Part shown: in pieces, positions 33,371 through 33,393 of the stretch
Layout of the letters: every line of letters starts with the position of its first letter
How positions within the stretch are numbered: position 1 is the stretch's first letter
Assembly: GCF_054482595.1 (NCBI RefSeq)
Contig: NZ_CM137008.1
Strand: one strand, 5' to 3'
Length of the DNA: 64,000 nt
The notes under the pieces: model-generated
The model's database searches: none
Told to the model about the DNA's origin: nothing
The model's input: the letters and a program-made list of their open reading frames with translations, nothing else
Translations under genes and position numbers: made by a program

Positions 33371-33393
33371 GTCCTTCCCCTTACGGGAAGGTC
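33371..33393. promoter_or_regulatory. Candidate CueR (MerR-family) operator in the cueO promoter
   Basis: Dyad ccttccc-N6-gggaagg (gtccttccccttacgggaaggtc) about 55-75 bp upstream of the cueO start. Confidence 0.5.

Follow-up and report, generated by a model that had tools for sequence, protein, structure and literature searches.

The window analysed here, a 64-kb stretch of E. coli O157:H7 DNA, carries the copper homeostasis gene cueO, which encodes a multicopper oxidase and which lies on the minus strand at 31769..33319, with gcd at 29159-31567 and with yacC on the plus strand, starting at an ATG at 33484. The gene order around cueO is the same as that found in K-12. Since cueO is read from the minus strand and yacC from the plus strand, the inverted repeat that is the subject of this analysis lies within a 164-bp divergent intergenic region that separates the two genes. 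Over 401 bp around this dyad the window matches E. coli O157:H7 strain TR01 (NZ_CP033605.1) at every position and K-12-type strains at 97.8% identity; all but two of 5426 complete E. coli genomes (5424) contain this stretch, with cueO and yacC as the flanking genes in RefSeq. The start of cueO depends on the source consulted: a mechanical list of open reading frames begins the gene at a TTG at 33358 (529 aa), and RefSeq begins it at an ATG at 33319 (516 aa). The ATG is preceded by a conserved AAGGA Shine-Dalgarno sequence and leads straight into the Tat motif RRDFLK of the signal peptide (MQRRDFLK...); the TTG coincides roughly with the inferred start of cueO transcription. Elsewhere in the window, Rfam models scoring above their gathering thresholds mark a tp2 sRNA (47264-47377, plus strand), an STnc40 sRNA (59248-59317, minus strand) and two tandem copies of the nucleoid-associated, REP-derived naRNA4 (58652-58729 and 58768-58844, minus strand).

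The preliminary description had placed an inverted repeat with a 6-nt gap at 33371-33393, upstream of cueO, where the letters read gtCCTTCCCcttacGGGAAGGtc. A repeat search does find a perfect dyad in this interval, with two arms of 7 nt each, at 33373-33379 (CCTTCCC) and 33385-33391 (GGGAAGG), that are 100% complementary; the gap between them, however, is 5 nt rather than 6. The dyad proper thus occupies 33373..33391, reads CCTTCCC-cttac-GGGAAGG on the plus strand and CCTTCCCGTAAGGGGAAGG in the sense of cueO, and is contained in the wider range originally given, which takes in a further two bases at either end (gt...tc), complementary only in their outer g/c pair. In the sense of cueO, 63 nt separate the centre of the dyad, at 33382, from the ATG downstream. 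RefSeq annotates no regulatory feature at this site.

The dyad reproduces without mismatch the core box CCTTCC-N7-GGAAGG that has been defined for the copper-responsive regulator CueR (PMC8169799, PMC1526738). When one mismatch is allowed, this box still has a single match in the 64-kb window, at the cueO dyad, and the composition-adjusted chance expectation for the exact box is 0.004 per 64 kb. A search of the whole window for CCTTCCC-N5-GGGAAGG with up to two mismatches returned the exact dyad and one two-mismatch site, where 0.08 were expected; that second site, CCTTCCCAACTTGCGAAGA at 1229-1247 on the plus strand, is judged to be at chance level. The cueO dyad is real and is beyond what chance would supply.

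On the minus strand, the region reads ...gcggcTTGACCTTCCCGTAAGGGGAAGGACTATGCTcaacgtttgattttgtttcgcctgcttaagaataAGGAAataactATG, and a promoter layout can be assigned to it from the sequence and by analogy with the copA promoter (PcopA). In this assignment a predicted −35 hexamer, TTGACC, lies at 33390..33395 and a predicted −10 hexamer, TATGCT, at 33365..33370, with a spacer of 19 nt (33371..33389) between them, 2 nt above the sigma-70 optimum. The dyad begins on the final two bases of the −35 and runs on into the spacer, where it fills the first 17 positions out of 19. Judging from the position of the −10, transcription of cueO would start at about 33357-33359, giving a leader (within 33320..33364) of about 40 nt that ends with the Shine-Dalgarno sequence just before the ATG. 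A standard sigma-70 scan with spacers of 16-18 nt found no promoter anywhere in 33250-33550, a range that includes the whole intergenic region, and this is to be expected if the spacer is 19 nt. An explicit search for TTGACC-N19-TANNNT does match the site upstream of cueO; its second match in the window, at 55016-55046 on the plus strand, has a spacer without a dyad and is at chance level. As for other regulators of this promoter, a second operator of the CusR/HprR type was considered in the direct repeat ATTGTC...ATTGTG upstream of the −35 (approximately 33405-33425); in the alignment this stretch is specific to Escherichia and lies where indels are frequent.

As a check on the copper-responsive reading, it had been proposed that the dyad be compared with the one at copA in the same genome, and for this purpose the genome was taken to be NZ_CP033605.1, the complete match to the 401-bp query. 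PcopA is identical in this O157:H7 genome and in K-12 (cTTGACCTTCCCCTTGCTGGAAGGTTTAACCT; in a longer reading, ttcTTGACCTTCCCCTTGCTGGAAGGTTTAACCTttatc), and its core box is the single match in 50 kb. The two promoters have the same −35 (TTGACC), the same half-sites (CCTTCC and GGAAGG) and the same 19-nt spacer, and when they are aligned on the −35 the dyad begins in both at the fifth base of that hexamer, so that the register too is alike. Identity amounts to 14 of 19 positions within the dyad and to 23 of 32 across the promoter. The differences are found in the central 7 nt, which are CGTAAGG in cueO and CCTTGCT in copA, in the −10, which is TATGCT in the former and TAACCT in the latter, and in the symmetry of the arms: the 7-nt pair is perfect in cueO, whereas 6 of 7 positions pair in copA, and conversely the outermost positions of the 21-bp extended palindrome are A...T in copA but are broken (A...A) in E. 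coli cueO.

The regulator itself lies outside the 64-kb window. In NZ_CP033605.1 cueR is intact, and its product is identical to K-12 CueR at 134 of 135 positions, including C112 and C120. In O157:H7 TR01 a block of about 25 kb (23882-48836 of the extracted cueR locus) sits between ybaT and cueR and holds genes for a TolC-family protein, for an siiEA/BapA-like adhesin (a 20-kb gene with a frameshift) and for the ABC transporter and HlyD adaptor of a type I secretion system, with the cueR ATG overlapping the HlyD stop codon by 4 nt. K-12 is without this block, but the HlyD 3′ end, about 90 nt of it, is kept directly upstream of cueR (5870-5993 of the corresponding K-12 locus); thus, the upstream context of cueR is not alike in the two strains.

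Conservation of the site can be followed both within E. coli and across the family. The K-12 cueO (yacK) promoter, gcTTGACCTTCCCGTAAGGGGAAGGACTATGCTcaacg, belongs to the same locus and is identical to that of the window, with no differences in the core, and a 51-bp core is shared without change by 5259 of the 5424 E. coli records (approximately 97%). For the wider comparison, a CueO protein scan that retained one genome per species yielded 80 loci from Enterobacteriaceae, from genera that include Escherichia, Citrobacter, Salmonella, Enterobacter, Klebsiella, Raoultella, Kosakonia, Kluyvera and Phytobacter. The upstream region of cueO follows the pattern CTTGACCTTCC-N7-GGA(A/G)GG-NN-TA(T/A)GCT in 79 of these 80, with the spacer constant at 19 nt, and CTTGAC is invariant among the aligned promoters (80/80). 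The −10 is divided almost evenly between TATGCT (39 loci) and TAAGCT (38 loci), the latter being found in about half of the genera other than Escherichia. Half-site positions are 96–100% conserved with two exceptions. One is position +7, which is G in 57 of the 80 loci, so that GGAGGG is the commonest right arm and the half-site is imperfect in most other genera; the other is the variable position ±5, at which double changes that keep the pair complementary (G/C in three loci, A/T in one) are outnumbered by one-sided changes, a pattern that carries no weight in either direction. In the cross-species alignment, conservation across the intergenic region peaks at this promoter block; the remainder is rich in indels, which reach about 50 nt on the stretch from the cueO −35 to yacC, and the leader varies in length by 11 nt.

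Several lineage differences accompany this picture. Between the promoter and the yacC side (33396-33442 in the window), Salmonella arizonae and Phytobacter carry approximately 40–55 extra nucleotides. On the other side, the cueO leader is 9–11 nt longer in Escherichia and some Citrobacter than in most other genera, with a distance from dyad to ATG of 51–53 nt in the former as against 41–44 nt in the latter. The one locus of the 80 that lacks the CueR box is that of Intestinirhabdus alba, where CTTGAC is also missing (940-1200 of that locus) and the DNA upstream of cueO is GC-rich and unrelated; cueO may therefore be regulated otherwise in this species, or the region may have been replaced.

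Taken together, the box that is exact and unique in the window, its low chance expectation, the 19-nt spacer and the conserved layout argue that the dyad at 33373-33391 is almost certainly the operator of CueR, the Cu(I)-sensing member of the MerR family, within the sigma-70 promoter of cueO, and none of the observations speaks against this. The preliminary description had reached the same reading, a dyad of the CueR or MerR type in the cueO promoter, and it is supported in every respect that can be judged from sequence, including the position inside the TTGACC/TATGCT spacer, the likeness to copA, the presence of cueR and the conservation at 79 of 80 loci; the length of the gap was its single error.

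Three other explanations deserve to be weighed against a CueR operator. A palindrome of this kind might act as an RNA or DNA hairpin, in the form of a terminator, an attenuator or a transcript-stabilising stem, instead of being bound by a protein, and as RNA a 36-nt stretch does fold with −13.1 kcal/mol on the plus strand (z = −3.2) and −14.9 kcal/mol on the minus strand (z = −2.3). Comparable folding would nevertheless be obtained from any perfect 7-bp GC-rich palindrome, no run of T follows the dyad on either strand, and a terminator scan gave no match. The location is equally difficult to reconcile with a role in RNA, since the dyad sits between the −35 and the −10, upstream of the inferred start, and would hence be absent from the cueO mRNA, while on the other side it is also upstream of the conserved block next to yacC. 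The conservation data bear on the same question in that the pairs of the stem are not kept, the third being T/G in 57 of the 80 loci and the seventh complementary in only 33 of 80, and we consider a hairpin very improbable.

We regard it as just as improbable that the dyad is an operator, but one that serves a paralogue of CueR such as ZntR, SoxR or another member of the MerR family. The architecture on its own would allow this, as a dyad in an over-long spacer and a −35 beginning TTGAC or TTTAC are shared by the zntA and soxS promoters, and activation by distortion of the DNA is common to MerR-type promoters of this design (PMC1526738). The zntA promoter bound by ZntR (cTTGACTCTGGAGTCGACTCCAGAGTGTATCCT) has, however, half-sites ACTCTGGAGTC, a 20-nt spacer and a 22-bp palindrome, and the soxS promoter bound by SoxR (cTTTACCTCAAGTTAACTTGAGGAATTATACT) has half-sites CCTCAAGTT in an even-centred palindrome of 18 bp. 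They match the cueO dyad at only 6 of 19 (zntA) and 9 of 19 (soxS) positions, compared with the 14 of copA, in which both 6-nt half-sites are identical; it is because the half-sites are those of copA and not those of zntA or soxS that another paralogue is unlikely, and the literature likewise assigns cueO to CueR (PMC8169799, PMC9396075). Finally, the palindrome could be a functionless chance occurrence. Apart from the shortness of the motif nothing speaks for this, and the expected number per 64 kb, a placement that suits a copper gene in strand, register and distance, and the conservation across 79 species in the midst of varying intergenic DNA all speak against it; the expectation and the conservation are sufficient to exclude it, and its probability is negligible.

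The reading of the dyad as a CueR operator rests on the anatomy of the sequence, the PcopA-like layout, the presence of cueR and the conservation computed here, and the binding of CueR, the activation of cueO in response to copper and the mechanism of distortion are taken from the literature, the last of these having been solved structurally on PcopA. A dyad that fills a spacer stretched to 19 nt is the hallmark of promoters activated by the MerR family (PMC1526738, PMC8169799). Both copA and cueO are under the control of CueR and have promoters with 19-bp spacers, where the inverted repeat is bound on the side opposite RNA polymerase and the spacer is bent and under-twisted, which brings the −35 and −10 back into line; PcopA variants in which the box is shifted by 1 bp have been built and tested for the effect of its position (PMC8169799). 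On the same dyad apo-CueR represses, and holo-CueR activates copA and cueO (PMC5329002). In vivo, a PcueO-lacZ fusion responds to copper, PcopA and PcueO are taken to be the targets of CueR, and deletion of both abolishes the specific CueR-DNA signal (PMC9396075), and induction of cueO by copper has been seen by RNA-seq (bioRxiv 10.64898/2026.03.12.711415). A CueR site with a 19-nt-spacer promoter was listed for the yacC-yacK (cueO) divergon as early as 2006 (PMC1526738). The primary experimental papers cited in PMC8169799 and PMC5329002 are Outten et al. (2000) and Yamamoto and Ishihama (2005).

Applied to the promoter in the window, this mechanism can be envisioned as follows. A CueR dimer would sit on the two CCTTCC half-sites, with RNA polymerase on the other face of the DNA. 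With the hexamers 19 nt apart, the promoter alone would be poorly recognised, and metal-free CueR would hold it off. On binding Cu(I), Ag(I) or Au(I), CueR would kink and under-twist the spacer and so bring the hexamers into register, and transcription of cueO would then begin about 40 nt upstream of the ATG.

The divergent arrangement raises the matter of yacC. At 33443-33456 there is a block, AACGTTAGCA(C/T)AC in the sense of cueO and GTGTGCTAACGTT in the sense of yacC (plus strand), that is as conserved as the CueR promoter (79 species) and that probably holds the promoter of yacC. Within it, the plus-strand sequence TGCTAACGT could serve as an extended −10, lying approximately 30 nt before the ATG at 33484; no −35 for yacC is evident. 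Because the operator sits in the region shared by the two genes, one may speculate that it is more than a switch for cueO, such that bending by CueR modulates yacC as well. A separate speculation is that the lineage variants (the perfect 7-5-7 palindrome of Escherichia, the GGAGGG right half-site of most Enterobacteriaceae and the variable position ±5) set how much copper cueO needs, compared with copA, from one genus to another. We hold both ideas to be unlikely. In the literature searched, the 2006 comparative paper (PMC1526738) is the only one in which yacC appears together with cueO and copper.

Overall, the feature is an ordinary one, for the site, its regulator and the mechanism of DNA distortion have all been published already, and since CueR has two classical targets, of which the cueO promoter is one, the finding carries little weight as a discovery. 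The check does confirm that a first-stage reader is able to spot a MerR-type operator in raw sequence. What is added here is a corrected gap and, for the Enterobacteriaceae as a family, a documented conservation of the site, of its register and of the 19-nt spacer in which it lies.
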